From positions 27,354 through 91,353 of the IMG/VR virus record IMGVR_UViG_3300021171_000006: a stretch of DNA of 64,000 nucleotides; one strand, 5' to 3'. The first letter of the stretch is position 1, and each line of letters opens with the position of its first letter. Source of the DNA: a virus. A program made the position numbers and the translations under genes. Shown piece after piece: positions 13,003-35,510 of this stretch. The notes beneath the pieces were generated by a model, which saw only the letters and a list, made by a program, of their open reading frames with translations, searched no databases and was not told the DNA's origin.

Positions 13003-13030
13003 TGCGTTTTTATTGTGTCTTAATGGAGAC
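13003..13030 (+). other. dif-like 11-6-11 site S1
   Basis: tgcgtttttat tgtgtc ttaatggagac; 13011-13029 is identical to 32921-32939. Confidence 0.55.
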
Positions 13031-13038
13031 GTTACCCC

Positions 13039-13425
13039 ATGAGCACCCCTCAATGGTTCGCCGAGTTTGAGCGGCAAGAGGCGATGCGCGATGAACGTAT
13101 AGATATCATCCGAGGCGATATGGAGCGTCGGAAGAGCCTGCGCCATTTTGGCGATCCATGCGTTCATTGTGGAATAACTCACGACGACGTTGCACCAGGC
13201 CCGTGTCTCGGCGATCCCACCAAAGCGGTAGTGGTTGCCTATTGCGTATGGCGGCAAGCGTACCAAAACCCAGGAAGCGGCTGCGATACGATACGGTGCG
13301 CAATGAGCGATGGAACCATTAAAGACGACGCGAGGCACCCGGCCGAACACTGGCCATACAACGTTTGGTTTGCGCGAGCCCGCGTGCTCTCTCGCACCGA
13401 ATTTCAAAAGTTATATCCCCGTTAA
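13039..13425 (+). CDS. cassette-like hypothetical protein
   Basis: flanked by S1 and S2; CxxC motif; stop codon lies inside S2. Confidence 0.65.
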   Translation: MSTPQWFAEFERQEAMRDERIDIIRGDMERRKSLRHFGDPCVHCGITHDDVAPGPCLGDPTKAVVVAYCVWRQAYQNPGSGCDTIRCAMSDGTIKDDARHPAEHWPYNVWFARARVLSRTEFQKLYPR

Positions 13426-13442
13426 GGTCCATTAAAATGCCC
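13415..13442 (-). other. dif-like site S2 (inverted)
   Basis: reverse complement gggcattttaa tggacc ttaacggggat. Confidence 0.5.
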
Positions 13443-13835
13443 GCTTCCCAAGAGCAACTGTCCCAACTCACGGCCACCAACGCGAGCGTGAACGCTGTGC
13501 CCTACGTTGCGGATAATCCGGCATTCGGCGAGTTGCCAGATACGTGGAAGGTCCGCCCCGATGGAAAGGGGTTTTTATGTCGGGACTACGCCATCGCCAA
13601 AGCGACTGAGTTGGTCGACCAGGGGTGGCCGAAAGCTGATCTCTCGGTCGTGCTCTGCTACGACGAGTTGGGGGATTATCACGCTGTCTTGGCTGCCGAG
13701 GCTGGCGGAGAGACATGGATCCTCGACAACCGCTACCCGAAGCCGTATCGCTGGGACGAGCCCCCGTACCCGTACAAATGGGCGCTGCGCCAAGTTGCGG
13801 GAACGGACGAGTTCCGGGATATATCGCAGGCATGA
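13437..13835 (+). CDS. transglutaminase-like cysteine peptidase (BTLCP / peptidase C93) catalytic domain
   Basis: NASVN..., CRDYAIAK, HAVL, ILDN give a Cys-His-Asp triad. Confidence 0.85.
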   Translation: MPASQEQLSQLTATNASVNAVPYVADNPAFGELPDTWKVRPDGKGFLCRDYAIAKATELVDQGWPKADLSVVLCYDELGDYHAVLAAEAGGETWILDNRYPKPYRWDEPPYPYKWALRQVAGTDEFRDISQA

Positions 13836-14515
13836 AGCGTCCCCTCGCCATCTTCCTCCTCGCTGCGCTCGCCGGCTGTGGCAGCGGCGGCGGCCCTCCA
13901 CCTCCCCCTCCGCCCGTCGTCACCATCCCGGATCTCTCCGTGTACCTGGTGGGAGACGGCGCCTTCTCGGACGGCCAGGATCAGGTCGAGTACAGCTTTT
14001 CGGACCCTCGCGGTTTCTGGGTCACGGCATGGACCTACCCGACCCATCCGGCAGATAACGGGGGCGAGGTCTACGTGAGCGACGGCACGACCGTCTCGAT
14101 TTGCTGCACCCAGGACGGCAGTCAGCCGGGCATCCAGCGCTTCGCCGAGTGGGGCTTGTTCAACAAATACACGATCCCTTGCTCGCAAGGCTGGACGCAG
14201 GTGGATTCCCTCGGGCGCGCGTGCGAGGCTACCGTGACATATCCGGGCGGCCTCGTCGCCGACTCGATCATCAGCGAGCACTACAGCCAGCCTACTCAAG
14301 GCGGCGATATGGAGCGGTTCTACTTCGCCAGGGGGCGTAAAACCTGGGAGGCGTATAACTTCGCCGCACCGCGTGATGGAATGCCGCTTGTTGGGCCGAC
14401 TGGTGGGCCGCCGGTCGATGCCGGTGTCAGGCCGTTGTCGGATCGCCGGGTGCTCACTATTCCGGTCGCCGGGACTCCGGGAACGGACTGGCCGCCGACG
14501 GGATTCGTGCCGTGA
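13832..14515 (+). CDS. lipoprotein
   Basis: MKRPLAIFLLAALAG|C followed by a poly-Pro linker. Confidence 0.7.
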   Translation: MKRPLAIFLLAALAGCGSGGGPPPPPPPVVTIPDLSVYLVGDGAFSDGQDQVEYSFSDPRGFWVTAWTYPTHPADNGGEVYVSDGTTVSICCTQDGSQPGIQRFAEWGLFNKYTIPCSQGWTQVDSLGRACEATVTYPGGLVADSIISEHYSQPTQGGDMERFYFARGRKTWEAYNFAAPRDGMPLVGPTGGPPVDAGVRPLSDRRVLTIPVAGTPGTDWPPTGFVP

Positions 14516-14736
14516 GCGTCATCCTACAATCGTGGCCGCTGCAACTCACCATCGTGTTCGTGATCGCCGGCAGCGTCTTTGCAGCGCATGAGGGTTGGGC
14601 ACTCATCACCCATCGCCAGACCCTCACCGAATGGATCAGGGCGACGACCAAGCGCTTCCCGATCTTCATTTTTTTGACGGGCGCTTTCGTAGGATGGTTT
14701 TTCCAGCACTTATGGGGTTCTCCGCCTTGCCAATGA
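14512..14736 (+). CDS. small membrane protein
   Basis: two TM segments. Confidence 0.6.
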   Translation: MSVILQSWPLQLTIVFVIAGSVFAAHEGWALITHRQTLTEWIRATTKRFPIFIFLTGAFVGWFFQHLWGSPPCQ

Positions 14737-15503
14737 TCGACAAATTGCCAACGTCAATGACGGCGGCAAAGGCAATAAAGGCACCATTTTACTATACGGG
14801 CAGACCCTGCTCGCGCGGGCATTTAGCTAAACGCCGCACGGGGAATGGCACATGCAGTGCATGTAAAAATGCGTGGCGACCAACAGTGTTTCGGGATGCT
14901 GTCGCTAAAGCCTGTGCAAAATGTGGAGAAGTTAAACCGCCCAGCGAATTTTATGATCATCCGGTAGCTAAAGATCGGAAACAAGGGAGTTGTCGGCAAT
15001 GTGTTGCCATCGCTCATCGATTGCGGATGGAACGCCCCGGCATTCGAGAAAAACGCAATGCATATTTTCGGGAATATGGGAGGACGCCGCATAGGCGGGA
15101 GCGGCAGGCTATTGCTGTGCGAAAGCCCGAGAGACTTGCGAAGGTCAAAGAATATAATCAACGTCCAGAGGTGAAAGAGAGGGTGGCTAGGGGAGCGCGC
15201 GCGAGACGTGCTCTAAATCCCCTCCCGCATCGGGCGGATAGTAAAAACCGTAAGGCGCTTAAGCGGGCTGGGCGCAGTAGTGTCTCAACGAAGCAGATAG
15301 TTGAGCTTCTGGCCCTCGCCAAAAAGTGCCCCGACTGCGGTCGGCGGTTCTGCAAAGCGCGACCAAAGACCATCGATCATGTGATGGCGCTCTCGCGTGG
15401 CGGAGAGCACCGGATCGATAACCTCCGGGTGATCTGCGGCTCCTGTAATTCAAGCAAGAGCGCGAGAGCATTCTCATCAAATGGTCAGGGGATTCTCCTT
15501 TGA
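14733..15503 (+). CDS. HNH endonuclease
   Basis: YYTGRPCSRGH zinc motif; CPDC...TIDHVMALSRGGEHRIDNLRVICGSCNSSK. Confidence 0.9.
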   Translation: MIDKLPTSMTAAKAIKAPFYYTGRPCSRGHLAKRRTGNGTCSACKNAWRPTVFRDAVAKACAKCGEVKPPSEFYDHPVAKDRKQGSCRQCVAIAHRLRMERPGIREKRNAYFREYGRTPHRRERQAIAVRKPERLAKVKEYNQRPEVKERVARGARARRALNPLPHRADSKNRKALKRAGRSSVSTKQIVELLALAKKCPDCGRRFCKARPKTIDHVMALSRGGEHRIDNLRVICGSCNSSKSARAFSSNGQGILL

Positions 15504-17576
15504 CACATCTCTATGGCGGGATGCCTTGCACATGACGATCTTCGACGGCGCAGAGGACGACTGGACCGAAACCGAGCGCCGGGATCACAGCGGGTCGATC
15601 CCCGCTTCGTCGGCCATCATAAGCCAATCACGGATAGCCTCTCGACTATCGAGGCGGTCGATCCATGCGCGAAGTTCGTCAATGCTAGGCCCCCGCCACG
15701 ACGGCGCAGCAATCCACTGCCGAAGGTATGCCCGCATCGCGGCGACGTGGGTGCTCGACATTTCGGTGCCCGTGAGATAGGCCTCGACGGCGGGGCGCAA
15801 AGCTCCGCTTGTTTCGTTCATCCAATAGCCCGGCGCATCGATCACGCCAACCCGCCGATCCTGGCGCACCATTCCCTCCGGTGCTCCTCGCTGAAGAACC
15901 AGAAGGTCACCGCCGAGTCGCTGTCGTCGAGCGCATTCGGCGCGGTTAGATCTTCCGGGGATTTGAGGAAGATCCTGATGCCGACGAAATCGCCGGATTG
16001 GGTGCGCTTCGATACGAGCTCGACGCGACCTGTGATCTCCTCGGCGTAGCAATTCAGACGGCTCATTTTCGGCCCTCCTCAGACTTTTGTGGTTGAGCGT
16101 CCGGCGGAATATGAATGTGTTGCCGATCCGCGATGCTCCTCACTGTCCGACAGACAGATTCGGGATCATCGTCCCCCATTACTACGTCTCGGTCATCATG
16201 GGCAGTGTTTCGGATCACCAGCGTAATCTTGATGTCGTCTCGGAATAGTTTGCGGATATCATCCAATCGCCAGCCAAGTTCGGCGCGGAGAACCCGCAGG
16301 CTTTCGGCTGTAGAGGCCATAGGATTTTTCCTTTTACGGTTGAGTATGAGCGATTGTGCGGTAGATCTCGCGAGCCCGCCGCTCGCATCCGGCGGGCACC
16401 GGCCTGCGCCTATCGGGCCAAAGGTAGCCGTGGAAGAAGATTTCTGCCGCTCGGGCCGGGTCGCGTTCGGCCAGGAGCCGATCCAGCGTGCCGAACTCGC
16501 GGAGCTCGGTGAAGATGTGGCCGATCTGCGCCTGCCCGTCGCTCCAATGGCGACCGAGGACAGCGCGGGCACGTTTGCGCCGCTTGCCGGTCCACGCCCC
16601 GAAGCCCTCTCCGAGACGGCTGCTCGCGGTGGGATCGAGGCCGGGCCCGACTTCTCGTTCGAAATGTGCGATCAGGCCGGCAGAGCAGGCCAGATGGCAA
16701 TGATGCACGGCGAGGGCCGCGACGAGGGCGAGCATCTTCATTTCGCAGCGATGGGCGGTTAATCCGCGAGCGCCGCGTCGATCATCGCGCGCCAGAGATG
16801 GGCAGCCTTCTCTCGCGTATCGCCGACATCGGCCCAGATCGCCAGCATAGTCTCGGTCGGCTCGCGCATCGCCGCGATGGCCGCGCGGGCATCGGCACGA
16901 TAGTATTCTTGTCCTCTTTTTGGTAACGCATCCCATGTCCTGACAAAGCTACCGCGTCGTTTAGCTAGGCGCTCGTAAGGCGCTCGTGCGACGCGCTCGA
17001 CCATCTCGTTCATCACGGCACTCCCTTGTGTCTGAGACCTGGGGTGTGCTGTTTCCCGCGCGATCCGGGCGATGGCCTGGCGCTCGGGCTCGGCGATCGT
17101 GCTGCCCTCAACACGACCATCCGCCAACCCCCGCGCATAGCCTTTCTCTTCTTCTCTTTGCAGAGCGATAACGTGCTCAGATTGCTGGCGGTAATAGCGC
17201 CGGTCGGCATCGCTATCTTCGGCAAGGTGGCGTTCGTGGAGTTCAGACATTTCGCGATACTTGGCGATGTCGATCTGACATGCCGCATATGCCATCTCGT
17301 CTCGCCCGAAGTGAAGGGTGGCGGCCTCTCGATCCGTAAAGGTTTCCCCGCAGTGGAAACACGTCCACCTCTCGATGATGCTGCCCTCCTTATCCGGCGG
17401 AGGAATAAACTCTCCGATTTTAGAAAAGTGATCGTCACCTAGTGTTATTCCGTGATCTCTCGCACACAACGACCATTCACCGAGATGGGACCAATAAGCA
17501 ACCTGAGGCCAACCCTCACCGACCGTTACCCAGTAGAATCCGGCCGATCTCTCTGAGGGTCTATCGTTACGTTCGC

Positions 17577-18767
17577 TCATCGCTTAGGTCCTCCGCTCTC
17601 AATCGCTATCACGGTCGCGCTGATATCGGGATGCGTCGCATGTGCTCGTGCCCACCACGCGCAGCGCTGACGCTCCCGCTCAGTGCCCTCGATGACGCCG
17701 GCAGCGTGGGCCTCGCGCCGGTTTGCAGCGACAGCCTCCTCCCGAAGCCTGCGGGATTCCTCCACATATCCCGCTCGGGCCTCGCGCTCGGCCTGCTCGA
17801 CGAGGCGGGCATAGTAGGCAAGCGTATCCGGTAAGCTCCCGCGAGCTACTTCGTCTTCGGCTGCATCACGATAAGCCTTGTAGACGCGCTCCATCGCCGA
17901 GGTGCCGGGCGGGGCCGTCTCCGCAGGCACATCAAACGCAGGATTTAGCGCTTTGTCCGACAAGTCTTCAGTCAAATGTAAAAATGTTGGGAGATCAACA
18001 AATCGACAGAAGACAGCGACGTTCATTTTACGGGCAATCTCTAGCAACGTTCTAAGGCTCCACCCGCTATATGCCGGATTCTCCAGGCGCCCAATGATCG
18101 TTTTTTGCGTGTCAAGGTTCGCGGCAAATTCTTCCTGTGAACGATTACCACGAAAATTACGCATCTGCTGTGCGAGGACGCCTCGCGTATGTGAGGCCAC
18201 ATAGCCATCGCGATAGGTCTTGTCGCTAAAGTTTTCCGTGAGGATAGCAATGCGACGCGAGGCGCCGGGCTGGGCCGCCACCCGCCGATCTTTGCCACCC
18301 CGACGCTCGGTCCCATCGTCGCGCGGCACGATCCCCTGTCGGCGCCCTTGGCCTATTCGGCGGTCTTTCGTCTTCCAAGGGGCCAACGGCTCGTATACGT
18401 CGAGTTTGGCCGTCTCTGCTTTGATACGGACCTTCAGCGTCTCGCAGTCCTTCGTCAGCCGCGCGATCTCCCCGACCAGCCACTCGGTCATCTGCGCCAT
18501 GTCCGGCAGGACCAACTCGTTGCCGGGGTGCGCCGCGCGCCACGCCTCGACGCCCCGCATCTGTGCCTCCCAGAAGCGGTCGAAGCGCTGCCGCCAATCG
18601 GCGACCTCGGCTCGCTCCGTATCGAGGAGGCGGAGCAAAAAATGACACGCACCACAAGAGTCGCCCGCACTTTCCCCCTTTTCCCTGACACCGGGCATAA
18701 GTAGCCACTCGCGAATCTGCGCCTCATGCTCTGCGTCGACCGTCTCCGGGGTGGGGTCAGCCGGCAT
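17577..18767 (-). CDS. mosaic protein with internal XRE-type HTH
   Basis: LAQQMRNFRGNRSQEEFAANLDTQKTIIGRLENPAYSGWSLRTLLEIA. Confidence 0.6.
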   Translation of the reverse strand: MPADPTPETVDAEHEAQIREWLLMPGVREKGESAGDSCGACHFLLRLLDTERAEVADWRQRFDRFWEAQMRGVEAWRAAHPGNELVLPDMAQMTEWLVGEIARLTKDCETLKVRIKAETAKLDVYEPLAPWKTKDRRIGQGRRQGIVPRDDGTERRGGKDRRVAAQPGASRRIAILTENFSDKTYRDGYVASHTRGVLAQQMRNFRGNRSQEEFAANLDTQKTIIGRLENPAYSGWSLRTLLEIARKMNVAVFCRFVDLPTFLHLTEDLSDKALNPAFDVPAETAPPGTSAMERVYKAYRDAAEDEVARGSLPDTLAYYARLVEQAEREARAGYVEESRRLREEAVAANRREAHAAGVIEGTERERQRCAWWARAHATHPDISATVIAIESGGPKR

Positions 18768-21370: not shown

Positions 21371-22933
21371 TCATCCAGCCTTTCCGATTTCGTCCCATTG
21401 CTTCGTAATGGCCGCGTCCAGTTCTTTCAGGTCGGCGACGTCGATCTCCTTGCGAGCCGCTTTCAGGTGCTCGTCATTGTCCCCGATCATGGTGGCTAAA
21501 TCATCGCTGTTGGTCATCTTCCGCAATTCCGGCAGGAAGACAGAGACCGTCCAGATGTGCCATTCCGGCTCCCCGCGCACCATGACGGGCGGTAATTCCA
21601 GGCTCGGGTGCATGCGCTCGTCAGCCGGGACGCCGAACCCGAGGCGCTGCTGGCCGGGTTCTGCCGGCGGTGCTGCCTTGGGCGGCGGTGGCCCCCGTTT
21701 TACCGGGGGCGCCGTTTTATCGGTGGGGTCGGGTTCCACGGCTGCATTGGGCATCATCTCCTTTCCAAGTTCCGCAGCCTGGGGGGGCTTGGCAGTCGAA
21801 TGCGGTTCCTCCCCAGGCCGCTCCGCCTCGGTCTGAGGCGAAGCTTGTTGCGTCTTTTTCTCCTCGGCCTCGCGCGCAGCTGCTTCCCGAGCCGCCATTG
21901 CCTGCCGCGCCAGTCCGTATTCGGTGCTCAGTTCCTTCGACAGCGCGTCGTGCCCGGTCTCGTCCAACCGCTGCATGAGGCCCTGGTTGTTGTCCCACAC
22001 CGTCGTCAAGGCCGCTTCGTTCTTGGCCTCTTCCAGCGCGGCTCGGTAGGCAAAGACCGCTGTCTCCACGGTCTCGTAGAGGACGACGTTGCCGACCATG
22101 TCGATCACTTCGAAGGGGTCGGGATGTTGCTCTGTCTCGGTGATGGCATCGCTGACCAATTCGGCCGGATCTTTGAAGTCCGACCGTTTCGGCCGCGGGG
22201 GCGGTGTCACGTCGGTTGCGAGTTCGGAGGCGTCGATCAACTCGTCGTGATCGAACGGCATGCCACCGAGGATGCCCGGCGCCACGCCCGTCGCGAACCG
22301 ACGCATCGCGAGATAGCGGATTTGTGTTTTTGGGTCGCTGCCCCAGAGCGGGCTGTTGAGAGGGAAGCATTGCACGAGATAGAACGGCTCATCCTCGCCG
22401 GGCCATACGCGGGGCTCATCCTCGCCCTTCACTCGCCAGCTGATGATGATGCCGAGCCCCTTCGCATCTTCCGGCGTCCATGTCGCCTTGATGAACTCGT
22501 TGCCCTTCTGGCTGGTCTGTTTCTGGAACTTGCCGATCACCTTCGACCAGTCGCCGACATAGGTAGCCTTCGGGGCACCGATGAACCGACCAGATTGCTC
22601 CAAGATCGCCTGCACCAGCTTGCCCTCGAAGCCGACCGAGCCGCCCGGTGTCTGGTATGTGCTCCGGGCGACGAAGCTTGGATCAATGTTCCACGTCACC
22701 GCTTGCGTAATCACCGTGAAACACGCCTCGGCCTTGCCGGCAAGGTGACGCGGCGTGAAGACCGAGTCTCTGGACATGATTCCGCTCAACCTCTTGATCG
22801 ACTCGTAAAGCCGCTCGTCGAGCAGGATGCGCAGCGATGGCGCGAGTTCGCGCTTCGGGCTGAGCAGGTCGCCGATAGAAGTCTCTTGAGCGAGATCAGC
22901 CGGAAGGGCGGGGACCGGTGCGGTGTCGTTCAT
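21371..22933 (-). CDS. RecT/Redbeta-like ssDNA annealing protein with long C-terminal extension
   Basis: PRHLAGKAEACF.V..QAVTW..DP..VA..TY; SPLW.SDPKTQI.YLA.RRFA. Confidence 0.75.
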   Translation of the reverse strand: MNDTAPVPALPADLAQETSIGDLLSPKRELAPSLRILLDERLYESIKRLSGIMSRDSVFTPRHLAGKAEACFTVITQAVTWNIDPSFVARSTYQTPGGSVGFEGKLVQAILEQSGRFIGAPKATYVGDWSKVIGKFQKQTSQKGNEFIKATWTPEDAKGLGIIISWRVKGEDEPRVWPGEDEPFYLVQCFPLNSPLWGSDPKTQIRYLAMRRFATGVAPGILGGMPFDHDELIDASELATDVTPPPRPKRSDFKDPAELVSDAITETEQHPDPFEVIDMVGNVVLYETVETAVFAYRAALEEAKNEAALTTVWDNNQGLMQRLDETGHDALSKELSTEYGLARQAMAAREAAAREAEEKKTQQASPQTEAERPGEEPHSTAKPPQAAELGKEMMPNAAVEPDPTDKTAPPVKRGPPPPKAAPPAEPGQQRLGFGVPADERMHPSLELPPVMVRGEPEWHIWTVSVFLPELRKMTNSDDLATMIGDNDEHLKAARKEIDVADLKELDAAITKQWDEIGKAG

Positions 22934-25900
22934 TGGGTTGTGTCCTCGGGTTCGGGGAACTCTTCGGGGAACTGCTCCTGGCCATGGGCCTGTTCCCATT
23001 GCGCATTCCAGCACGGATAGCAGAGACCGTGATCGGGATCGCCCTCGGGCCAAATCTTCGCCCCGCAATTCCCGCAGAGGGTTTCGGTCCAACCGGGCTG
23101 AAGCCACCAGAAGCTCATCTCCGGTGTCCTCCTACAATCGCGTTGTAGATGGAATCGTGAATGGTCCCGGAGAGCCGGTCGATCGTCAGGTTCACGCCAT
23201 CGCCGTTGAGCCAGCCGGCGATCTGCTCCGTGGCGTCGGCAATCCGCTTGAGGCTGATTGCGATCGACGCCAAGGCCGCGCCCTGGTCGATCATGGCGAT
23301 GTTCTCTTCCAGCCGAGCGATAGTGCCTTGGTACACGTCGCCCCGGAGACCCTCAAGGGCATCCCATCCGCAGGGGCAATGCTGCAGGTCATAGCCTGCG
23401 CCTCGTAGCGGCTTGTGGCAGTCGGGACAGGATTCGTGTTTCTCGGCCATTGTCACTCATCCACGTCATCGAAGATTGATCGGTTGCCGTTCTCGTCGAG
23501 GAGCATGCCGTCATCGGACCACATATGCTGGCCGTTCGGGTGCCGCTCGGTCGCCTCCCGCTCATAGAGCGCGCGCGTTTCCTCGCCGTAGTTCGGCGGA
23601 TCGTCGACGGCCCCATGGTGGCCGGAGGCCCATGCTTCGCAGGTCATGCGCCCGCTCACGTACTTTCCGTGGTTTGGGCCGGTCTCGCTGAGGCAAAGAG
23701 CCTGCACCGAGCCGCCGCCTTCGGATTTCGCGATCATCTCAGACCAGAAGCGGCAGCCGTAACAATCCTTGGTCTCGCCGAAACTGCGGGGCATCAGAAC
23801 GGCTCCTCATCGTCGAGGGGGTTGTAGCGAGGCGCAGGCTCGACGGGCGGCAAAGCGGCCAGCGGGATTGTCGCGAAAATCGTCGGCGGCAATTCATACT
23901 GCCGCCTCGCCTGCCGGTCCCATGCGACGACAGGAGAGCATGGCGTCAGGCGATAGATCGCAGCGCCGCCGTGAAAGACGGCGGGTAGCAGCACGCGATT
24001 GAACAGCGGCTCGATCGCCAGCATTTTCGATCCGAAGCGCTCGACTTCGGCAATGCGGCCGATCAGCGTCGTGTGTCCGAATAACTCGACGATCGCGTAC
24101 TCGCCGGGCGGGAGCGCCTCAGCATTTTCGAGTTGCTCGGTCATGCGGTGCCACCAATATCGGGTTGGCCTTCGAAGCGTTTGATCTGCTCCTTGAACAT
24201 CACAACGATATCCCGGCGATCGGCGCCGTTGCTGATGTAGTTGCAGCGCCCCTCGTGCTCGCCGAAGGGGAAAACGAGCAGGACGAAGCCGGTCTTGCGC
24301 TCTTTGCCTTTGGGCCCCTTGTTGAAGGCGTTGTCGAGCATCCGCGCGATTTGGTTCATCATCTCGCGATATGCGTCCTCGATCGGAGCGTCGCCCAATC
24401 TCTCAACCATCACACCAACCCCTTCTCTGTCGCCAGCGATTCGTCCATCGTCATCGTGCCCGCCTCCTCGTCCCATTGGCACTGGCTCTTGGGGAGCCAG
24501 ACGGTCGTCCTGCCGTCATAGAACCGATACGCTTTCTCGGTTTCTCGCGGCGGCACGAGCTCGCCCTCGATATCAACGAGTTTGCTGCGGCTGGTCATGG
24601 TCGCATCCTCACGGTCGGCTTTGTAGCGGCGTATTTCGTATCGACGACAAAGCCGCAGATCGCGCACCGTTTTAGCGTCTCGTCAGGCTGGCAAGCGTCA
24701 CCACTTGCAAGCGCCGATAAACAAGGCGTCTGCTGGCTATCCCGATCTATGAGCGCGGCGGCGCATGCCGCTACCATCGCTTCACGGATCGATATCTTGC
24801 GGATGATTGCCTGACCAAATTCGGCAAGCACCACATCGACTATCCGTTCCGCGCGCATCGTTCGATTGTCGACGAGTTTGCTACGGGCCATCGGGCAAGT
24901 CCCCTTGCTCGATCGGCTCAACCGCAATCTCGCCGATGCCGTCACACTCGGGGCAGATGTCGACCGAAATGATCTCGCCGCGATAAGGGTCATGGCCGTG
25001 CGAGATTTCGACCCTGCCGATGCCCGCGCATTCTGGGCATTTGATCGCCGTCCACATATCTTCGATCATCACACGACGCTCTTGATGATGGTGGTCGAAT
25101 CCTCGATCACCCGTGCGCCAGGCAAGGTACGGACGCCAGCCTTCACCTGCCGGTCGAATATCTGCTGCACGGCAGCGCGGACGGTTGCCTCGTCCACCTT
25201 GCGAGCGTGGCGGATCGCAGCGGTGAGGTCGTAGATCTCGACCTTCCAGACCTTCCGACCGCTCGCTTTGACGCCGAGACCGCTGTCGATCGCCTTCGCC
25301 GTCACGGCGGCGGCTTGGCGATCAAGCTCGGCGGACGCTACCGCAGCGCGGCGCGCCTCGATGTCTGCGGCTAGGCGGCGTTCGGATGCTTCCGCTTCGG
25401 CCTTGGCTTGTTCGGCGCGGGCCTGGGCAGCTTTGGCTGCTGCCTCGCGATCACCGGCCCGGCGCGCTTCTTCCTCCGCCCGCCGTACACGCTCGGCGGC
25501 TTCGCGGGCGGCAGCGGCTTCGCGCTCCTCAGCTTCACGGCGAGCACGTTCCGCAGCGGCGGCCTTCTCGCGCTCGACCCGGGCGGCTTCCTCCAGCCGA
25601 CGCCGCTCGGCCTCAGCTTTGGCTTCCTCGTCGCGGCGGAATTTGTCCACCATACCAAGTACGGTGAACAGCGGGCCGCCTATCACCTTCTTTTCCGGAT
25701 CGAATATGGCGAGGCGAGCGGCGATGCCGTTGAAATGCGCGTCGACTGCGCGTCCGGCCTCAAGGTAGGGACGCTTGCGGGATGCGCGGGCGTCGTCGAT
25801 CGTGGCGAGATGGCTCTTGATCATCCCTGCTAATAAGGTAGCGCGTCCCGCGCTCTCCTGGTCGGTGACCTTGGCGCGCTCTACACCACCGATCAGATCC

Positions 25901-28900
25901 CCGGCTTTCTTTTCGATTTCCGCTGTCTCGACCGGCAGCAATTCAGCGAGAGGCGGAAGGTTACCACCGATTACAGCCCTGGGATTGGCGTCAAGCGCGT
26001 CGGACATGATGTGCTCCTCTAAAACGGGATTGGGAGTTGGTCGAGGCGAATACGCTCTTTCGGCCGCACCTTCGGCTCTTCAGGGCGCCATTTCTGCGCA
26101 TGTTCCAAATCTGCAATTTCGTATCGCCAGTCAGCCTCGGTGATCCGACGCGCTCGTTCTTGCCGCCACTTCGCCATCGGGGCTGTCTGAAGCGCCTGCT
26201 GGCGACCGCTGCGTGGAGCGCGATCTGCCGGCGGCGGGTTCGCCATGCGCCGTTGTTCTGCTGGGGTCGCTTCGACGAACTCCAACATCGCCCAAATTTC
26301 GTATGGGTCGGCGAGGTCGGTGCCGATCTGCCCTTGAAGGTATGGCATGGGCCATCTATCGAGCTTGTTCTCAGGTATTCCCGGCTCATGGTCGCACCAG
26401 AATAGTCGCGCTGGCACTTCGGGCCCGTCACGCCTGAGTCTGACCATCCAGTAGCCCTCGCGAGGCTCAGCCATCCCCTATCTCCTTGGCGATCCGGTCC
26501 CGCTCGTACTCCAGCCAGTCCTCGATCCGCTGCTGGACCTCCTGAGCGAGCCGATCAGCGAGCGCGTGCAGTTCCGGCCCGTTACCGAGAAAGTGTTGGG
26601 CCAGCTTGTAGCATTCCTCGTCATAGCTCATCGCTCGGTCACGTCCGACAGCGCGAACACGATGCCCCGACAATATTTTTCGCCGTCCTCCAAAATGTCG
26701 AAGGAAACGTGAGGAATGGTAGTCTCATAGACCCACGAATAGCCCTCCGTGTCCCACTTGGCGTCAATGGTGGACGCCGCCTTCATTAACCGCTTGAAAT
26801 GGGGGCAATCCTCATTATCGCATTCGTTCACCAAGAGACCGGATTTTGTGAAGTACGCCGTCGCACCTTCCCATGCGCCGATTTCATCGTTGACGGCACC
26901 CCGAAACTCCATGAGGTCATCGCTAGCGCCGAAGACAATCACAAGGCCGTTGAGTTTGGCTTCGTATTCCTCGGCGTCGGTGGTTTCGTCGCGGTACTCT
27001 CGACCATGCAGTTGTACGGCCAACTCTCTCGCGTCCATGTGGTTTAACTCCCTATGTGTTCGATGGAGAGGCAGGCAGAGTCCCCCCTTCCGAGGGGATC
27101 TGCGTGTTCGACGGAGCCGGCTTCGCAGTGCGCTCTTGCTCGCCCTGGTGTTTGGCGGAGGCGGTCATCCTGTACCTCGCTTACGGCTGTTCCACATACG
27201 ACGGTTACGACATCCCCGGAGCCGAGCGCATCGACAGCCGGGTTGTCCGCGGATACACCATCCGCGTCTTTGGCCTGCGTTGCCGCGCGTTCGCGCCCCC
27301 AGCGGCCGTTCCCCCGAACGGTCGCATCTGCGCTCGCCAGAGCGGCTATGCGCTCGGCGGCATCGAGTTTGTTCCTGCGAGGGGTTGCCCTTCACGCCGG
27401 GCCGCGCTATAAAACCCGCAGGAAATCGCCGGTCGCCGCCGAGCGAAGTCCAGAGGGCGGGTCGAGAGTTTACACCTCTCCCCGCCTTCGCCATTTCAGG
27501 GTGGCGCATCTGCCGGGCCTCTGTCAATAAGTTTTCGCCGGGCTGCATTAATCCGCGCCTTCCGTTTTTCATACCTGACCGGATCAGCCTTGATGGTCTG
27601 GAAGTAGCGCCGCATATGTGCGGAATAGCACTGTCGGCATCTCCGTTGCCCATTCGGTAAGGGTGCGGCGTCCTCAAGCGAGTGGCCACGTTTGCAGTGC
27701 GTTTGCCGGGGCCTGCCGGGCTTGCGCTTCTCGCTCATGGCGTGGCCCAAGCCATCAGCGCGACGACCATCAGCGCGCACGCGAGGACACAGAGCCAGCC
27801 GATGACCGCCCGCGCGATGGACCTGTCGCCTGCCGCAGCCTCAGCGTAGGCCACACCCGTAGCGTCGGGCACGGCGAGGCGGTCCAGCGTCTCCATCGCC
27901 TCGTCGAACTCGGCCTCGTGCGACTCCAATTCGGTCGGCCATCGGATTATATTATTCATCATCTTCACTTTGGCGCAACTTTAGGGCCTCAATCTCATCG
28001 GCGATGTCTCGTTCAATTTCTACCGAGTAATCGTTCGTCAGTTTGGCTAATAGAGAGCCAATCTTGATGGGGTCATCTGTGCGACATTGACGTTGCGCTT
28101 CCTCTATAAGACGCTCGCGCCATTGGCGGCAGATAGAAGCGCGAATAATATCGGTGTTCATGGCTTCCTCCACCAAAGACCAGCCGCGTTGAACTCAGGG
28201 AGAAGATCCGCCCAACGACCAAACCACGGAGCCTGTCGATGCACGTTCTCGTCACGCGCAAACTCAACAATCTCGCTGGGATTCGGCAGATCGCCCTCAG
28301 CCACTGAGTGCCATCCCTCTGCGCGCAGTTCGGCGCCAGTCACGGCGTCACCAATACCGGCACAACCAACCCGGCCAGGATCTCTGCCTCGGTGAAGCCG
28401 CTATCCGCCCCGAAGGCTCGGGCGCGCGCTTCGAGAGCGCAGAGTTCGTCATGGAGCCGCCGCACCCCGCAGCCGTCGCCGTGGTAGACCTCAGCCAAGG
28501 CTGCGGCGAGCTCCGCGTGCCCGTGGAGCCCGGCCCGGCGCAGATGCCCGGCGGCGACAAGGCAATAATCCGAGCGCAGGAGCGATCCGTTCGCTTCGAG
28601 GCTTCGGTCAAGGGCGATGATCGCTTCGGTGAGGTGGGTCATCACTTTTCCGAGAAATCAATAATTTCCTGCGGCAATCCCCGTTTTGATTGGCCGGCGA
28701 TCTGCATTTGGGTCTTGATCGTGCGCAGGATTTCACGGGATTGCGCCGCAACAGCGTCCGCCCGATTCGGGAGCATCTGTTCGGTCTTCACGTCGTTCAG
28801 TGTCTCCCATAGGATGTCTTTGAGGCTACTCGCTGTCAGCGGCCTTATAAGAGTCGTCGCGTTTCGGCCCTTCTGAACGGCGGTCCCGCTCTTGCGCTTT

Positions 28901-29377: not shown

Positions 29378-29379
29378 TC

Positions 29380-29530: not shown

Positions 29531-29537
29531 CTTCCCC

Positions 29538-29828
29538 ATGAGCGATATCGGTATGTCTCCGGGCGAGGCGATGACCTTGGCGCGGCGTCGCCTCGGTCTG
29601 CCGCAAAAGGCTATAGCGGATATCTGGGGCGTCTCGACGGCATACGTCTCGGCGGTGGAAACTGGCGACAAACGATTCCCGAGAGAGAGGGTGGCCAATC
29701 TGCCCATCGAAATCCGGCGCGAGATTGTGACGGCGCTGATCGCCGATCACGAGCGCGCTATCGCAGAATTGCGCGAGTTGGTCGCCGAGGGCGGCCTTGA
29801 ACCCGTCCAGTTGGAGGCTGGCGACTAA
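29538..29828 (+). CDS. Cro-like XRE HTH regulator
   Basis: ARRRLGLPQKAIADIWGVSTAYVSAVETG. Confidence 0.85.
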   Translation: MSDIGMSPGEAMTLARRRLGLPQKAIADIWGVSTAYVSAVETGDKRFPRERVANLPIEIRREIVTALIADHERAIAELRELVAEGGLEPVQLEAGD

Positions 29829-29839
29829 GGAGAAAACAG

Positions 29840-30223
29840 ATGGCACGCACACGCAAACGGAAAAACGGCGCGGACGCGGAATGGGGCGACGATAGCGGCG
29901 AATCTCCGCCGACCGATCACAACGCAAAAAGCCGCGCGGAGACAATTCAGCACTGCTGTCGTGAGATCACAAATCTGGAAGCCGAGCGGTCTTCGATCAG
30001 CGAGCAGGTTCGCGAGATCAAGCAGATCCGCATCAAGGGCGAACTCGGTATGAAGATTGGCGATTTTAACGCCGCCCTACGCTTATACGCGCTCGAAGGC
30101 GATGATCGCGATCAGTTCTTCGACAGGCTCCGGGAAACGTTCGAAGCCCTCGGCGTGGGAGCACAACTCGATTTCATCGATGCGTTGCGGGGCGAGGCCG
30201 AACATGCTGATCGCGGGGATTGA
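29840..30223 (+). CDS. GapR/DUF2312-like DNA-binding protein
   Basis: ITNLEAERSSISEQVREI...G......ALRL......R......L.....ALG. Confidence 0.65.
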   Translation: MARTRKRKNGADAEWGDDSGESPPTDHNAKSRAETIQHCCREITNLEAERSSISEQVREIKQIRIKGELGMKIGDFNAALRLYALEGDDRDQFFDRLRETFEALGVGAQLDFIDALRGEAEHADRGD

Positions 30224-30746
30224 TCCCGGGCTGTCCGGCGCCATCGCTCTGCGGGATACCGACGACGGCAGCATGAGGGTGGTGGACATCCCCACCTTCT
30301 CGCTGTCGCGTAACGGCAAGAACAAGCGAGAGATCGACGCCGTAACGCTGTCGATCATGCTCGACCTGTCTATCGGACATGCCTTTGTCGAGCAGGTCGG
30401 CGCAATGCCACATCAGGGCGTCTCTGGCGTGTTCGCCTTCGGTAAATCCTACGGCATCATCATCGGCGTTCTGGCGGCTCGTGGTGTGCCGATGACTTTC
30501 GTCAATCCTCGGGTGTGGAAGAAGTCTCTAGGTGTGCCGGCAGCAAAGGATGGTGCTCGTGCGAGGGCTTCACAATTGATGCCGTCGAGCGCGGAGTGGT
30601 GGACGCGGGTGAAAGATGACGGGCGCGCCGAGGCTGCATTGATCGCGTATTGGGGCATCCGCTCGCTCGCTGGCATTGGAAAGACGATGCCGGCCAAACT
30701 AGCCCCGCCGCACAAGCTGGGGCCGCTCTTCGCCGAGAGGTCGTGA
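30204..30746 (+). CDS. RuvC-like Holliday junction resolvase
   Basis: IAGIDPGLSGA; VEQVGAMPHQGVSGVFAFG; PRVWKK; DDGRAEAALIA. Confidence 0.85.
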   Translation: MLIAGIDPGLSGAIALRDTDDGSMRVVDIPTFSLSRNGKNKREIDAVTLSIMLDLSIGHAFVEQVGAMPHQGVSGVFAFGKSYGIIIGVLAARGVPMTFVNPRVWKKSLGVPAAKDGARARASQLMPSSAEWWTRVKDDGRAEAALIAYWGIRSLAGIGKTMPAKLAPPHKLGPLFAERS

Positions 30747-31283
30747 TGAACTTCGCCCCCGTCACGACGAAAGCCGACCTGATGACGCTTGATCCCGACG
30801 AGATCACGGCGGGGTACATGGATGCGCAACGAGGTGATCCCGAACCCGGCGTTAACCGGGGGCGCGCCTATTGGCACGGCTGGCGGAATCGAATGATGGA
30901 TCTCGGCGAGATCGAGATCGACGCAGGCCATCGCCGACTTGTTCACGAGATCGCGCCGAATGGCGTGTTCGACGACGAGGTGGTCGGGCGGCGCAGCGAG
31001 AGAGTGCGACGGTGATGCCCTACGCCGTCGGCGAGACAGTTCGCATCGACTTCCCCGCAGACGAGTGGCATGGCCGCGCGGTCGAGGTCGTGCGCGATGA
31101 TCCGGCGGTCGAGGTCGGGCACGAGGACGGCACCAGCATGATCGCTCGGGTGATATTCGTCCGGGGCCCCGGTATCCCGCATGCGGTGGGTTTCCACGCC
31201 TCTCACATAGCCGGGACGGTGGAGGCTCAGCAGCGCCGGCGGTGGGATGCTGAGGGTGACGATCGACAGGGAATGCTCGGATT

Positions 31284-31640
31284 ATGAACTCGGGAGCCTG
31301 GAATGCCGAATCCATCGCCCGCCTTAAGGATCTGGTCGAGGCCGGAGAGGCGAGCTTTAAAGAGATCGGCCAGGAGATGGGCCTATCGAAAAACATCGTC
31401 ATCGGGAAGGCGCGGCGGGAGGGGTTTGTCGGGCCTAAAACGCTCGGCCCTCGGGACGATGGTGTCCTGACCCTCACGCAGCGCTTGGACGCTCTTGATG
31501 TGTTCCCCGGACCTCGGAAGTGCGTGTTCCCGATCGGGCACCCGAGAGCGCCCAATTTCCATTTCTGCGCCGCGCGGGCGGATGAAGGGGCGCCCTACTG
31601 CCCAGAGCATCGGCGGATCGCGCTGGTGAAGGTGCTGTGA
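31284..31640 (+). CDS. gcrA: GcrA-family regulator
   Basis: W....RLK.L...G.S..EIG..MG.SKN.VIGKARR; CVFPIGHP....FHFC......GAPYCPEH. Confidence 0.85.
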   Translation: MNSGAWNAESIARLKDLVEAGEASFKEIGQEMGLSKNIVIGKARREGFVGPKTLGPRDDGVLTLTQRLDALDVFPGPRKCVFPIGHPRAPNFHFCAARADEGAPYCPEHRRIALVKVL

Positions 31641-32099
31641 GCGACCTTTTCGGCAACCCCGTCATCCCTGACGGCCCCGCGATGACGCCCGCCGAGCGAC
31701 GACAGGCGCTCCGTAAGGAGCCGAAGCCGAACGGGTACGCCGCACCTCCGGGGAGCGGACCCGCTGGAGAGACCTGCGGATCGTGCCGCAACCATACCGT
31801 CGTCAGGTACGCCAAGACCTACCACAAGTGCGAACTGACCCGGCAGGGGTGGACAGGCGGTCGGGCGACGGACATCCTCGTGCGGTCGCCGGCGTGTAGC
31901 CAGTGGGAGGCGAAATGATCGAGGTTCGCCGCTGCCGGGTATCAGCCGATTGGACGATGCGCAAAGACGGCACGCCCGGAAGCTCCAAGACCACGCTGAC
32001 CTACTGGCGCGTCCTTGTGGACGGGAGGATCGTGGACAGCTTCCTCGACCAGAAGCGGGCAGAGGCGAGGGCGGCTGAGTTGCGCGGGGAGGATGCGGC

Positions 32100-32852
32100 A
32101 TGAGCGTTCGCGTCGAGCATATCGGCGATGCGACTCTCTATCTCGGGGATTGCCAAGAATTGCTGCCTCGGTTCGATGGGGACGTAGCGGTCGTCGCAGA
32201 TCCGCCCTATGGGATTTGGTTTCGGCATTCTGGCTGCGGCAACCAGTTCCCGGTCGATCGCGGGGGACGCAAATCGCGCGTGCCACGCTTCGCAAAAATA
32301 TCAATAGTCGGTGACAAGGAGGGTTGCGATCCGGGACCGATGCTACGCTTCGAAGAGGTAATCATCTGGGGAGCCAATCACTTCGCCGACCAGCTTCCGG
32401 CATCCTCGCGCTGGCTCGTCTGGGACAAACGTGACGGAATGGCCTCAAATACCTTCTCCGACTGCGAGTTGGCGTGGTGCAAAAAGCCTGGCGCAGCGCG
32501 ACTCATCCACTACCTGTGGAACGGCATTTGCCGTGCCGGCGAGAAAGAATCTCGCGTCCATCCGATGCAGAAACCGATAGAGGTCATGGCGTGGTCGATC
32601 GGATTCACCGCCGGCGACACCATTTGTGACCCCTTCATGGGCTCCGGCACAACCGGCGTCGCCGCACTGCGTCTTGGCCGCAAATTCATCGGCATCGAGA
32701 TCGATGAGCGCTGGTTCGATATCGCCTGTCGCCGCATCGAGGCCGAAGCGCGACAAGGGCGGCTGGACATTCCCGAGATTGCGCAGCGCCCTCCCCCGAG
32801 GGAAGATCCGGTGCCGCCGCTCTTGGCCGCGATGGAGGGGGATGGGGAATGA
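32100..32852 (+). CDS. DNA N6A/N4C methyltransferase (beta class)
   Basis: DPPY motif precedes HPMQKP and DPFMGSGTTG. Confidence 0.9.
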   Translation: MSVRVEHIGDATLYLGDCQELLPRFDGDVAVVADPPYGIWFRHSGCGNQFPVDRGGRKSRVPRFAKISIVGDKEGCDPGPMLRFEEVIIWGANHFADQLPASSRWLVWDKRDGMASNTFSDCELAWCKKPGAARLIHYLWNGICRAGEKESRVHPMQKPIEVMAWSIGFTAGDTICDPFMGSGTTGVAALRLGRKFIGIEIDERWFDIACRRIEAEARQGRLDIPEIAQRPPPREDPVPPLLAAMEGDGE

Positions 32853-32912
32853 GCAAGGGCAGCGAGGCCGTCAATGCCCTCTTGAGGGACGCCAAGGCGA
32901 CACAGGCCGCAA

Positions 32913-32940
32913 TCCCCTCATATTGTGTCTTAATGGAGAA
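32913..32940 (+). other. dif-like site S3
   Basis: tcccctcatat tgtgtc ttaatggagaa. Confidence 0.6.
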
Positions 32941-32968
32941 GCGCTGATGCGCGGTCGCGGGTGCGCGA

Positions 32969-33220
32969 ATGAAATCTCTCAATGATCTTACGCCCGCCGC
33001 CCTACGAGCGGCCCTGACTGGCGGGACGGAGTCATGGGGCCAATGGGGTTCAGCCGATCAGCACGTTCGCTATGTTCAGCCCGCGCCCGCTACCGTCAGG
33101 CGTCGCTGTCATTGCGGATGCAAGCGGCGAGCGTCCCATAGCGGCATGGCGAATGGTGTCTGCCTCACAATGGGATGCGAATTATCCATGAGGCGATGGG
33201 TCGCCGATCCTCACCGTTAA
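32969..33220 (+). CDS. cassette-like hypothetical protein
   Basis: lies between S3 and S4; stop codon inside S4. Confidence 0.6.
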   Translation: MKSLNDLTPAALRAALTGGTESWGQWGSADQHVRYVQPAPATVRRRCHCGCKRRASHSGMANGVCLTMGCELSMRRWVADPHR

Positions 33221-33237
33221 CAAGTAATTGTAAGGGG
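33210..33237 (-). other. dif-like site S4 (inverted)
   Basis: reverse complement ccccttacaat tacttg ttaacggtgag. Confidence 0.55.
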
Positions 33238-33305
33238 AATCCATGCGCGGCTTGCCGGAGTGAGCCGGTGCCCGAGTTCTTCCTACCCATTGATGGGAAT
33301 AAGCG

Positions 33306-34085
33306 ATGAGCGACACGGTTCTGAGGCTAGCCGATCACCGACCGAAGCCCGAAAACGAGCCGCCAGCATGGGAATACCTGCCGTGCGCGCTGATCGTCGT
33401 TCATGGCATCGCGTGGGAGGAGTGGGTCTCGCTTTGGAACACGGTCGAGCAGCTGGACAAAAGCTCGAAATGGTACGTCGGCGACGCTCTCCTTGCGGGC
33501 CAGCGGGAGTTCAACGAGCGATTCTCCCAGGTGGTTGATGCGCAATATATCCACCAGCAACGCGGGGCGCTGTGGGTATCGAGCCGCATTCCGCCGGCCG
33601 AACGTCGCGAAGGGTTGAGTTGGTCCGTCCACCGAGAGGCTGCAAGTCTCTCCCCGGCCCGGCGGAAGAAGATGCTCGACCTGGCCGAAGCAAACGGCTG
33701 GGGCTCGAAGGAGGTCATCGAGGAGATCAACCGGCGCTACCCCGATGCCCGGCAGAAGCACGCCCCACGGAAGCAGAGTGAAATGTTCCAGGTGGAACAA
33801 TCCGAGTTAGATGCGGGATCAACCGATAAGCCGCGCCATGTTCATGTGCTGGATGAAGTGAGCGATCGCGACCCGATGACCCTGGACGAGGCGGTGGACC
33901 TTCTCACCAATTTGCCCGTGGGGGCCTTGCCGGACAACATCACGGAAGCGATTGCGCTGGTGCTGGACGAGCGGGCGAAGCTGCTCCGGGTGCTCGCGGT
34001 GGCGCGGGAGACCGTGTTGCAATACCACCTGCCCGACTTGGCTGCGGCGGTCGAGGCGCTGGAAACCCCTCATATCGTAACTTAA
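33306..34085 (+). CDS. LmbU-like regulator
   Basis: WEEW........SSKWYVGD; VSSRIPPAERREGLSWSVHREAA. Confidence 0.7.
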   Translation: MSDTVLRLADHRPKPENEPPAWEYLPCALIVVHGIAWEEWVSLWNTVEQLDKSSKWYVGDALLAGQREFNERFSQVVDAQYIHQQRGALWVSSRIPPAERREGLSWSVHREAASLSPARRKKMLDLAEANGWGSKEVIEEINRRYPDARQKHAPRKQSEMFQVEQSELDAGSTDKPRHVHVLDEVSDRDPMTLDEAVDLLTNLPVGALPDNITEAIALVLDERAKLLRVLAVARETVLQYHLPDLAAAVEALETPHIVT

Positions 34086-34092
34086 ACGGAAC
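34065..34092 (+). other. dif-like site S5
   Basis: acccctcatat cgtaac ttaaacggaac. Confidence 0.6.
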
Positions 34093-34100
34093 CCATCCTC

Positions 34101-34511
34101 ATGCTGTGTCCAAAATGCGGCGCGCCAGTTTATCCCTCAGCACCCGATGGTGATTTCCGTTATCGGCCGCCTCCGGCACGCAAGATTACAGGAAAGACAA
34201 GCGATGGCTACCATACGTTCGATGAACTGTACGAGCATCGGCACGCCCTGTTCATAACCCTTTGCCGCACCGTCGCGCGCGAACTATCAGATGAGCGTGT
34301 TGTCCGATCCCAACATCACTACGATGGAACCATGATCAACGGGTGGTTCATTCTTATGATCGATGGTGATCGAAGAGGCGAGCAGATTTCCTATCATCTG
34401 CCTCTGCGTCTTTGGGACCAAACGAATTTCGCAAATACGCTTGATCGAGCACCTGATTGGGATGGGCATTTGTCACAAGATGTGCTCGCGCGTCTTGCGG
34501 TTCTCCGTTAA
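34101..34511 (+). CDS. WDGH-motif phage protein (cassette-like)
   Basis: SDGYHTFDELYEHR...QISYHLP...W...WDGH. Confidence 0.75.
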   Translation: MLCPKCGAPVYPSAPDGDFRYRPPPARKITGKTSDGYHTFDELYEHRHALFITLCRTVARELSDERVVRSQHHYDGTMINGWFILMIDGDRRGEQISYHLPLRLWDQTNFANTLDRAPDWDGHLSQDVLARLAVLR

Positions 34512-34528
34512 GCAAGGCAGGACGGCTT
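34501..34528 (-). other. dif-like site S6 (inverted, outer arm degenerate)
   Basis: inner arm reverse complement ttaacggagaa, 10/11 identical to the S3 inner arm. Confidence 0.5.
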
Positions 34529-34809
34529 GTGGCGCAGGGGAAGAAGCACGGCATTATCCACCCGGCGAGCGAATGATGAAACCTCATCCAGATTGGCAAC
34601 TTGACCCACTTAAGGGCATGTGGTGGGCCACGCTTTTCTTCCGCGTATGGTTTTGGGTCGACCGGAGATGATGGACGATCACTTCATTCTCAGTGCGGCG
34701 CGCAATCACCTTGCCGATGCGCTCAAAGCGTTGTTGGTTGCGGACACCATGACAGAGAGAGACTTCCGTGCCGCTCGGTGGTCTGCGCGAGAAGCAATCG
34801 AGAAACTTG

Positions 34810-35493
34810 ATGTTCTGCTACGCGAGTCGGACGGGCACCGGACGTAACTTGGCCGCGCTTCGGGCGCACGGCTGGGGTCTTCTGGTCTCTCGGGCCGGTG
34901 TCTGGCGCACTGAGGGCTTTGAGCGGTGGGGTTCCGACAATGGCGCGTGGGCAGATTTCCAGGCTGGACGCAGTTTTGATGAGGATGCTTACGAGCACTT
35001 TCTCGATTGGGTTGGCGCTCAACCGGTTCATCCTGATTGGATCGTGCTCCCTGATATTGTGGCAGGCGGTCTTCCGTCGCTGAGGCTGTCGATGCGCTAC
35101 CTCAACCGGTGTTTGTCGCTGGCGCCGCTTGTGCTGATCGCTGTCCAGGACGGCATGGAGACGACCGATCTCGCGGCCTTAGTTGGGACCGCCGTCGGGG
35201 TCTTCCTCGGCGGCTCGACGGAATGGAAGTTGGCGACGATGCGCGCCTGGGGCGAGTTCTGCGCCGAGCGCGGCATCCACTACCACGTCGCTCGCGTCAA
35301 CAGCACCAAACGGATGAACCTCGCGGCTAGCTGTGGGACTCAATCGGTCGATGGCTCCTCGGTCAGCCGCTACGCCGTGACCTGCCCGAAACTGACTTCG
35401 GCATCGCGACAAGCCGATCTTTGGTCGCCGCGCCGCGTCGTCGACAACGGCATTGTCCACCCGCCGCTACAAAGCGATGGAGCCGAAACTTAA
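34810..35493 (+). CDS. TGT/DpdA-like TIM-barrel protein
   Basis: DNGAW, LPD, AVQDG, FLGG, HVAR, SVDGS in TGT-like order. Confidence 0.55.
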   Translation: MFCYASRTGTGRNLAALRAHGWGLLVSRAGVWRTEGFERWGSDNGAWADFQAGRSFDEDAYEHFLDWVGAQPVHPDWIVLPDIVAGGLPSLRLSMRYLNRCLSLAPLVLIAVQDGMETTDLAALVGTAVGVFLGGSTEWKLATMRAWGEFCAERGIHYHVARVNSTKRMNLAASCGTQSVDGSSVSRYAVTCPKLTSASRQADLWSPRRVVDNGIVHPPLQSDGAET

Positions 35494-35510
35494 TCTTTTA
35501 CGTGAAGGGG
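35483..35510 (-). other. dif-like site S7 (inverted)
   Basis: reverse complement ccccttcacgt aaaaga ttaagtttcgg. Confidence 0.4.

Follow-up and report, generated by a model that had tools for sequence, protein, structure and literature searches.

The gain and exchange of single accessory genes in tailed phages is mostly attributed to illegitimate recombination and subsequent selection, and sequence-guided shuffling has been documented in few groups only, e.g. in the T4-type phages with their promoter-early stem-loop (PeSL) cassettes. PeSLs join an upstream stop codon and an AT-rich block to a Shine-Dalgarno sequence and a start codon, and they are found in front of ORFans or separate the two parts of split genes (PMC2839356). 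A strong sigma-70 promoter belongs to them, as does a stem-loop terminator; approximately 50 are present per genome, and recombination between copies shuffles single genes (PMC2839356, PMC4122927). Another type of short site, dif and the related pdif of plasmids, is 28 bp long with an 11-6-11 arrangement in which the inner parts of the two arms form a conserved palindrome (PMC6449649). Here we report that three small accessory genes in the IMG/VR virus record IMGVR_UViG_3300021171_000006 have a start-side sequence and an Arg-TAA end in common beyond what is expected by chance. The window, i.e. the whole stretch analysed (64,000 nt, positions 27,354 to 91,353 of the record), constitutes the last 64 kb of a single virus contig of 91,353 bp with a GC content of ~61%; coordinates refer to the window unless stated otherwise. 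We interpret these sequences, with less than even confidence, as lineage-specific gene-junction or leader repeats around three acquired genes with low GC content at third codon positions (GC3), comparable to the PeSL cassettes of T4-type phages. If this is true, they represent a second, differently built example, in which three unrelated genes have shared start- and end-side junctions.

The three genes, referred to as cassette genes 1 to 3, and the sites discussed together with them (S1 to S7) are:

13039..13425, + strand: cassette gene 1, 128 aa, Cys/His-rich, without Pfam or PHROG family, GC3 0.57
32969..33220, + strand: cassette gene 2, 83 aa, phrog_28528, GC3 0.60
34101..34511, + strand: cassette gene 3, 136 aa, zinc-ribbon-like N-terminus and WDGH domain (PF25311), GC3 0.49
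32911..32944, + strand: S3, the fullest left motif, with AT-rich block, CTTAA, GGAGA Shine-Dalgarno sequence and short GC tail
13011..13029, + strand: S1 core, exact 19-nt copy of the right part of S3, with GGAGA 9 nt before the ATG at 13039
34063..34085, + strand: S5, copy of the left 23 nt of S3 (19/23), 16 nt before the ATG at 34101
34497..34512, - strand: S6, inverted copy of the right 16 nt of S3 (14/16), borderline
13416..13426, + strand: right end of cassette gene 1 (S2), TCCCCGTTAAG, the TAA of which stops the 128-aa gene
33211..33221, + strand: right end of cassette gene 2 (S4), TCACCGTTAAC, the TAA of which stops the 83-aa gene
35483..35510, - strand: S7, only the ACT TAA end of a DpdA-like gene
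32849..32985, + strand: two short overlapping upstream open reading frames (ORFs) of 32 codons (32849-32947) and 12 codons (32947-32985)

An initial annotation of this DNA had grouped S1 to S7 into one family of seven 28-nt sites, and each of these 28-mers is a single-copy sequence whose position and strand we could confirm. To score similarities we used random (Markov) genomes with the same dinucleotide statistics. By this measure S1, S3 and S5 exceed chance and S6 is borderline, while S2, S4 and S7 are at the chance level, and hence only a part of the proposed family stands. The 19 bp previously reported to be identical in S1 and S3 (13011-13029 and 32921-32939) are present in two copies only in the whole 91,353-bp genome, even when up to 5 mismatches are allowed. 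By length alone this repeat is within the range for random 91-kb genomes (maximum 16-22). Its composition-aware surprisal, however, is 12.6 compared to a null maximum of 8.8-11.4 (60 Markov genomes), and no other exact repeat of the genome reaches this value; the 19-mer thus stands out despite its ordinary length because it is AT-rich in a GC-rich genome. For S3 and S5, the shared 10-mer that had been noted is real but understates the similarity, since the match extends to 19/23 nt, where the null maximum is 14-18 (100 random genomes) and 0/300 shuffles of the upstream regions reach the observed match. The similarity between S3 and S6 (14/16) was attained in 7/200 random genomes. S6 read on the + strand is the end of the WDGH gene, CGT TAA included.

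Positions 11-29 of S3 are matched by S1, positions 1-23 by S5 and positions 19-34 by the inverted S6. Since each other member matches a part of S3, the latter behaves as a master copy. The partial copies match different parts of it, all three matches overlap at the CTTAA core, and the similarity stops at or near this core. S1, S3 and S5 are all present on the coding strand, with the TTAA positioned 17-20 nt before the first ATG. The ParB-like gene 33306-34085 has its last seven codons and its TAA stop within S5, and the encoded tail (ETPHIVT) is not conserved among the homologues.

The suggestion that the left inner arms supply a ribosome-binding site applies to S1, where GGAGA precedes the ATG of the gene, but not to S3, where GGAG serves an upstream ORF instead of the ATG of cassette gene 2. 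This GGAG sits 7 nt before the ATG of the 12-codon ORF 32947-32985, which overlaps the start of cassette gene 2. Together the 32- and 12-codon ORFs traverse S3 and link a methylase gene to cassette gene 2 via ATGA/TGATG overlaps, and they may be translated. The ORFs 13002-13067 and 32849-32947 share the frame in which the 19-mer is read, with YCVLME as the peptide, and each of them overlaps or directly adjoins the following start codon; they possibly represent leader peptides, or the common frame is a one-in-three coincidence.

The remaining candidate sites did not withstand the same scoring. S2 aligns to S1 at 17/29 positions, inside the null range of 17-21, and neither S2 nor S4 resembles S1, S3 or S5 beyond chance. 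S7 was rejected as a family member, given that it ranks 66th among 108 TTAA-anchored flanks. Look-alikes at 15481(-), 16328(-) and 28950(-) are within null ranges, and the resemblance of the region after S4 to a degenerate left motif did not reach significance (p = 0.11).

At the other end of the genes, the right-hand TTAA supplies the TAA stop codon at 13425, 33220, 34511 and 35493, as the initial annotation had it; the ORFs with such stops are 13039-13425, 32969-33220, 34101-34511 and 34768-35493. The genes following S1, S3 and S5 are the sole genes of the genome that end in TCNCCGTTAA. Their last 10 nt read TC-N-CCGTTAA, and these three are the sole such decamers on both strands of the genome. 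Among 9045 pairs of gene tails 15 show at least 9/10 identity, and the three genes form a 3-clique that accounts for 3 of those 15; for a triple pre-defined by the left motif the chance of such a clique is ~1e-6. The shared part crosses codon boundaries, and the encoded residues differ (P-R, H-R and L-R). WDGH proteins usually end at the Leu before the extra Arg of this phage, and the extra Arg is not conserved.

The inverted, inward-facing orientation of left and right sites and their 11-6-11 parse were, however, imposed on the sequence. TTAA is palindromic and can be read either way, and the inverted geometry was therefore largely the choice of the annotator. Compared as inverted copies, left and right sites match at 3-5 of 8 TTAA-anchored inner positions, like other TTAA pairs, with the exception of S3/S6. 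As such, TTAA at gene boundaries is ordinary, being ~twofold over the expectation from the coding fraction (17/54 are at a stop codon or up to 40 nt upstream of a start), and ~18-22% of the called genes have a TAA stop. Two further features of gene ends in this region can be mentioned: within 32969-35493 five successive genes have a TAA stop, four of them as NNT-TAA, and the gene ends at 34085 and 35493 have AACTTAA in common.

Genes near the sites, and the two recombination genes considered below, are:

32100-32852: N6/N4 DNA methylase gene
33306-34085: ParB-like gene (259-aa orphan)
34810-35493, + strand: DpdA-like gene, phrog_15826, with annotated DpdA-like matches in actinophages
13437-13835: BTLCP-like gene, transglutaminase fold
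39831-40625, - strand: small resolvase-type serine recombinase, Resolvase domain (E 4e-43) and HTH_7/HTH_23 domain
21371-23107, - strand: RecT-like protein, 578 aa, RecT-family domain (E 9.5e-7)

The methylase, ParB-like, DpdA-like and BTLCP neighbours have GC3 values of 0.69-0.76, above those of the three cassette genes. The latter have homologues in more than 100 unrelated viral contigs as well as in a Bradyrhizobium chromosome, a scattered distribution. For cassette gene 1 the protein atlas gives no function, and its true start may be the ATG at 13120 because homologues begin near residue 30. This gene is located between a small lipoprotein ORF (12783-12998) and the catalytic BTLCP-like ORF (13437-13835), and residues 51-68 of the lipoprotein align (hhalign probability 67%) to the motif found at the N-terminus of BTLCPs of 200 aa. 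A distant relative, contig G001, has the same lipoprotein and catalytic ORFs (locus L010, 2471-2616 and 2992-3378) with an unrelated gene for a 109-aa coiled-coil protein between them; TTAA sites and repeats at the junctions are absent around the 109-aa gene. We rejected the idea that cassette gene 1 is a recent insertion that splits an intact gene, as TTAA-to-TTAA excision, reasoned from the sequence, restores no single ORF. Likewise, the lipoprotein/catalytic split is not recent, given that the closest relatives of the catalytic half are proteins of 125-150 aa that stand alone.

On the basis of the shared ends beyond chance, the low GC3 and the different content of the cassette 1 slot in G001, the three genes may be exchangeable units. 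According to the reading that we favour, each of these compositionally atypical genes is positioned between a shared start-side and a shared end-side junction, the former an AT-rich block of ~19-34 nt that ends in CTTAA and a Shine-Dalgarno sequence, the latter TC-N-CCG-TTAA, which is an Arg codon and then TAA. The left junction would double as a translation-initiation leader, and the junctions would mark joints at which the genes entered by short-homology or illegitimate recombination. They could also provide short homologies for more shuffling; the RecT-like protein encoded by the phage, which the initial annotation did not mention, is a candidate single-strand annealing protein able to use short homologies. 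The repeats, their positions and statistics and the unusual composition of the genes are direct observations; we infer that recombination produced or uses the repeats and that the left motif drives translation, and a role of the repeats in gene shuffling is unproven.

Several results weigh against this interpretation. Only three or four copies are present, all from one genome. Occurrence of the cassette genes elsewhere without such flanks, which the initial annotation had itself named as an observation that would speak against its proposal, was found in 105 other viral loci and for all three genes. In total 9, 80 and 17 viral loci were gathered for the three genes, of which 105 could be scored; the best upstream matches to the S3 motif in these did not surpass those in random windows from these loci, and the homologous gene ended in CGTTAA in 0 of 105. 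Neither the exact 19-mer nor a degenerate left-arm pattern gave any match in IMG/VR (0 in both cases). Metagenome and genome collections gave three motif matches, in contigs of 34-43% GC, and we consider these to be due to chance because the contigs are unrelated and show no resemblance to the phage by tblastx. Judging from public data, the motif would thus be specific to this phage lineage. The nearest contig, G001 (91,268 bp), shares ~16 ORFs and almost no DNA identity with it, and is too distant for presence/absence breakpoints. Native coding sequence accounts for a part of the right-end motif: cassette gene 1 ends in YPR* compared to YNRGGR* in the closest homologue, and cassette gene 2 in DPHR* compared to DPRN* in one homologue. 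The low-GC stretch that follows cassette gene 3 continues beyond S6 to ~34800. Moreover, 0 sigma-70-like promoter sites were found in 12600-13700 and 32600-35800 (a non-sigma-70 promoter is possible), and there is no terminator or significant RNA structure at the sites.

In comparison with the described systems, the sites resemble PeSLs in being short repeats that combine an AT-rich stop, a Shine-Dalgarno sequence and the next start, located before small genes of no assigned function and between the cistrons of a split gene. As in PeSLs, the repeat spans the AT block, the Shine-Dalgarno sequence and the start of an accessory gene, and it is part of a variable region (the slot in G001 differs). 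Here, however, there is neither promoter consensus nor stem-loop, the copies are three or four, and there is an additional gene-end motif. Since sigma-70-like promoter, terminator and significant RNA structure are all missing, the analogy is only partial. With pdif modules the locus has in common that short AT-rich sites flank single accessory genes, and that the proposed recombinase would not be encoded beside the module. It differs from dif and pdif in that palindromic inner arms and the core are absent and that left and right sites differ in sequence. Integron cassettes, whose core site is GTTRRRY, are likewise promoterless single-gene units with a conserved gene-end sequence, and GTTAAG at S2 and S6 is superficially like this core. 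Unlike in integrons, there is no IntI-type tyrosine recombinase and the conserved 3' motif is inside the coding sequence; nor is there an attC-sized imperfect palindrome, the 11-85 nt between the genes having no significant fold. The ultra-small mobile elements of mycobacteriophages (MPMEs) span ~440 bp, have short inverted ends and contain a single small ORF that is the same in each copy, whereas each unit here holds a different gene. The start-associated sequences of Cluster K mycobacteriophages are exact repeats with a ribosome-binding site upstream of several genes, present in many copies and without a gene-end motif; our phage has few copies and a paired gene-end motif.

The geometry of XerC/D dif sites and plasmid pdif modules, to which the initial annotation had likened S1 to S7, does not fit these sites, as the arms are without dyad symmetry and miss the conserved core. 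Complementarity between the arms is 4, 5, 5, 3, 4, 1 and 3 of 11 for S1 to S7, with a background of 2.9 +/- 1.5 over all 28-nt windows, and the inner five arm positions match at 0-4 of 5. The core CATAA-N6-TTATG is present in nearly all proteobacterial dif sites, including those of Bradyrhizobium, Agrobacterium, Mesorhizobium and Brucella (PMC2731167, Table 1). No S site is within 2 mismatches of it, S3 and S5 missing 3/10, and the core-like matches with up to 2 mismatches in the window number 11, which is at the chance level (7 +/- 2.5 expected). The missing dyad symmetry together with the core mismatches speaks against XerCD dif sites. That no tyrosine recombinase is encoded in the window was confirmed and holds for the whole 91-kb genome, in which there is no match to the Phage_integrase family (the control was positive in 14/14 genomes). 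The sole recombinase found in the genome is the resolvase-type serine recombinase, which had passed unmentioned. Its class uses a crossover site of inverted half-sites around a 2-bp crossover, which the S sites, being without dyad symmetry, do not provide. In summary, the earlier idea of gene-cassette exchange fails in its dif/Xer form but survives as a possibility in the form of exchangeable units with conserved joints.

Among the other explanations, the main rival is that the left motif, shared by three co-regulated small genes, is purely cis-regulatory. It might act as a phage-specific promoter, as an operator or leader in translation, or through an upstream ORF that is conserved, with the right ends being a coincidence or the result of 5'-3' mRNA pairing that masks the Shine-Dalgarno sequence. 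We regard this as doubtful, although it accounts for the three copies on the coding strand at a near-constant distance to the first ATG with the Shine-Dalgarno sequence included, as well as for the short ORFs at S1 and S3, which have the frame of the 19-mer in common and reach into the following start codon. Also consistent with it, G001 has its own 39-bp exact inverted repeat (locus L013, 46747 and 58708), ending in a ribosome-binding site and ATG; because G001 carries such repeats, repeated leader sequences do occur in this phage group. The inner parts of left and right sites are complementary, and the RNA duplex S3 x S6 (-25.4 kcal/mol) is far below the background minimum of -16.3, but the cognate duplexes S1 x S2, S3 x S4 and S5 x S6 are no better than those with background gene tails. 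Against regulation, no sigma-70 consensus, significant fold (z-scores of the six junctions -0.9 to +2.0) or Rfam family was found at the junctions, there is no genome-wide start-associated motif, S5 shares only the half of the motif without the Shine-Dalgarno sequence, and coincidence of the right ends is difficult to reconcile with the low chance of the pre-specified 3-clique. Less probable still, and the least likely of the explanations considered, is that everything beyond the S1/S3 19-mer reflects chance and selection by eye, with AT-rich stop codons and ribosome-binding sites clustering at the boundaries of a 61% GC genome. The twofold enrichment of TTAA at boundaries, the borderline score of S6 and the position of S2, S4, S7 and the look-alikes 15481(-) and 16328(-) within null ranges agree with this, and by a rough estimate ~0.2 3-cliques of some gene tails are expected among 135 genes. 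S5, however, is beyond all 100 random genomes, and the members of the clique are precisely the three genes to which the left motif, as an independent criterion, had pointed.

It is also unlikely, in our view, that a site-specific recombinase or a TTAA-targeting transposase acts on the sites in trans. Candidates would be the phage serine recombinase, host XerCD or another enzyme, and through crossover or insertion at the TTAA core the TTAA-to-TTAA segments (402, 287 and 426 bp, or a 1.58-kb S3-S6 unit) would be excisable cassettes. S3 then resembles a full site, whereas S5 (left arm and core) and S1 and the inverted S6 (core and right arm) resemble hybrids; TTAA flanks every unit on both sides, and the resolvase-type recombinase is encoded 5 kb away. 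As a TTAA-flanked transposon, the S3-S6 unit has 11-bp ends that match at 9/11 positions (14/16 with CTTAA), as in 7/200 random genomes, but in the single-gene units only 3-5 of 8 positions agree between the inverted ends, a level also seen for random TTAA pairs. Dyad symmetry, a feature of both Xer and serine-recombinase crossover sites, is lacking, the dif core is unmatched, a tyrosine recombinase is absent, and the homologous genes are found elsewhere without flanks. No transposase was recognised among the proteins of the region. The 259-aa gene within the S3-S6 unit was rejected as a transposase or recombinase gene, as its product has no family or PDB sequence match and gives weak ParB/Noc-like fold matches. 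An undescribed cassette system with CTTAA joints, in which single genes are inserted, excised or swapped by crossover at the TTAA core, leaving hybrid sites (S5; S1 and S6), is similarly improbable; the enzyme might be the phage resolvase-type recombinase, a host enzyme, or RecT acting by short-homology exchange. Compared to these alternatives, we prefer lineage-specific junction or leader repeats around acquired genes.

With respect to the genome itself, an exact direct repeat of 126 bp is present at both contig ends (63875-64000 of the window and 18-143 of the genome), and points to terminal redundancy or to circularity of the assembly, although the virus record is listed as linear with a completeness of 59%. 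No close relative was found among cultured phages, where the matches were irrelevant short DNA matches and distant protein matches, or in IMG/VR. The phage is high in GC and probably alphaproteobacterial, and one homologue alone suggests a Bradyrhizobium-like host. G001 also carries a 48-bp direct repeat at 73827/79580. The DpdA-like product is a tRNA-guanine transglycosylase homologue, which hints at 7-deazaguanine modification in the phage DNA. From ~34100 to ~34800, past S6, the GC content is lower (0.46-0.59) and there are several very short overlapping ORFs.

Finally, a perfect palindrome of 20 bp (9-nt arms around CC) is located at 41453-41472, ~30 nt upstream of the start of a leftward gene. 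Two further copies of 18 nt are present, one at 33782-33799, inside the 259-aa gene, and one before the window (genome 13840-13857). The central 16 nt agree with the parS consensus TGTTNCACGTGAAACA (PMC7022226) at 14/16 positions. The 259-aa protein, an identical copy of which is encoded by a 91,789-bp contig in a protein collection, has weak fold matches to ParB/Noc/Spo0J DNA-binding domains, and protein and palindrome may constitute a phage ParB-parS-like pair.

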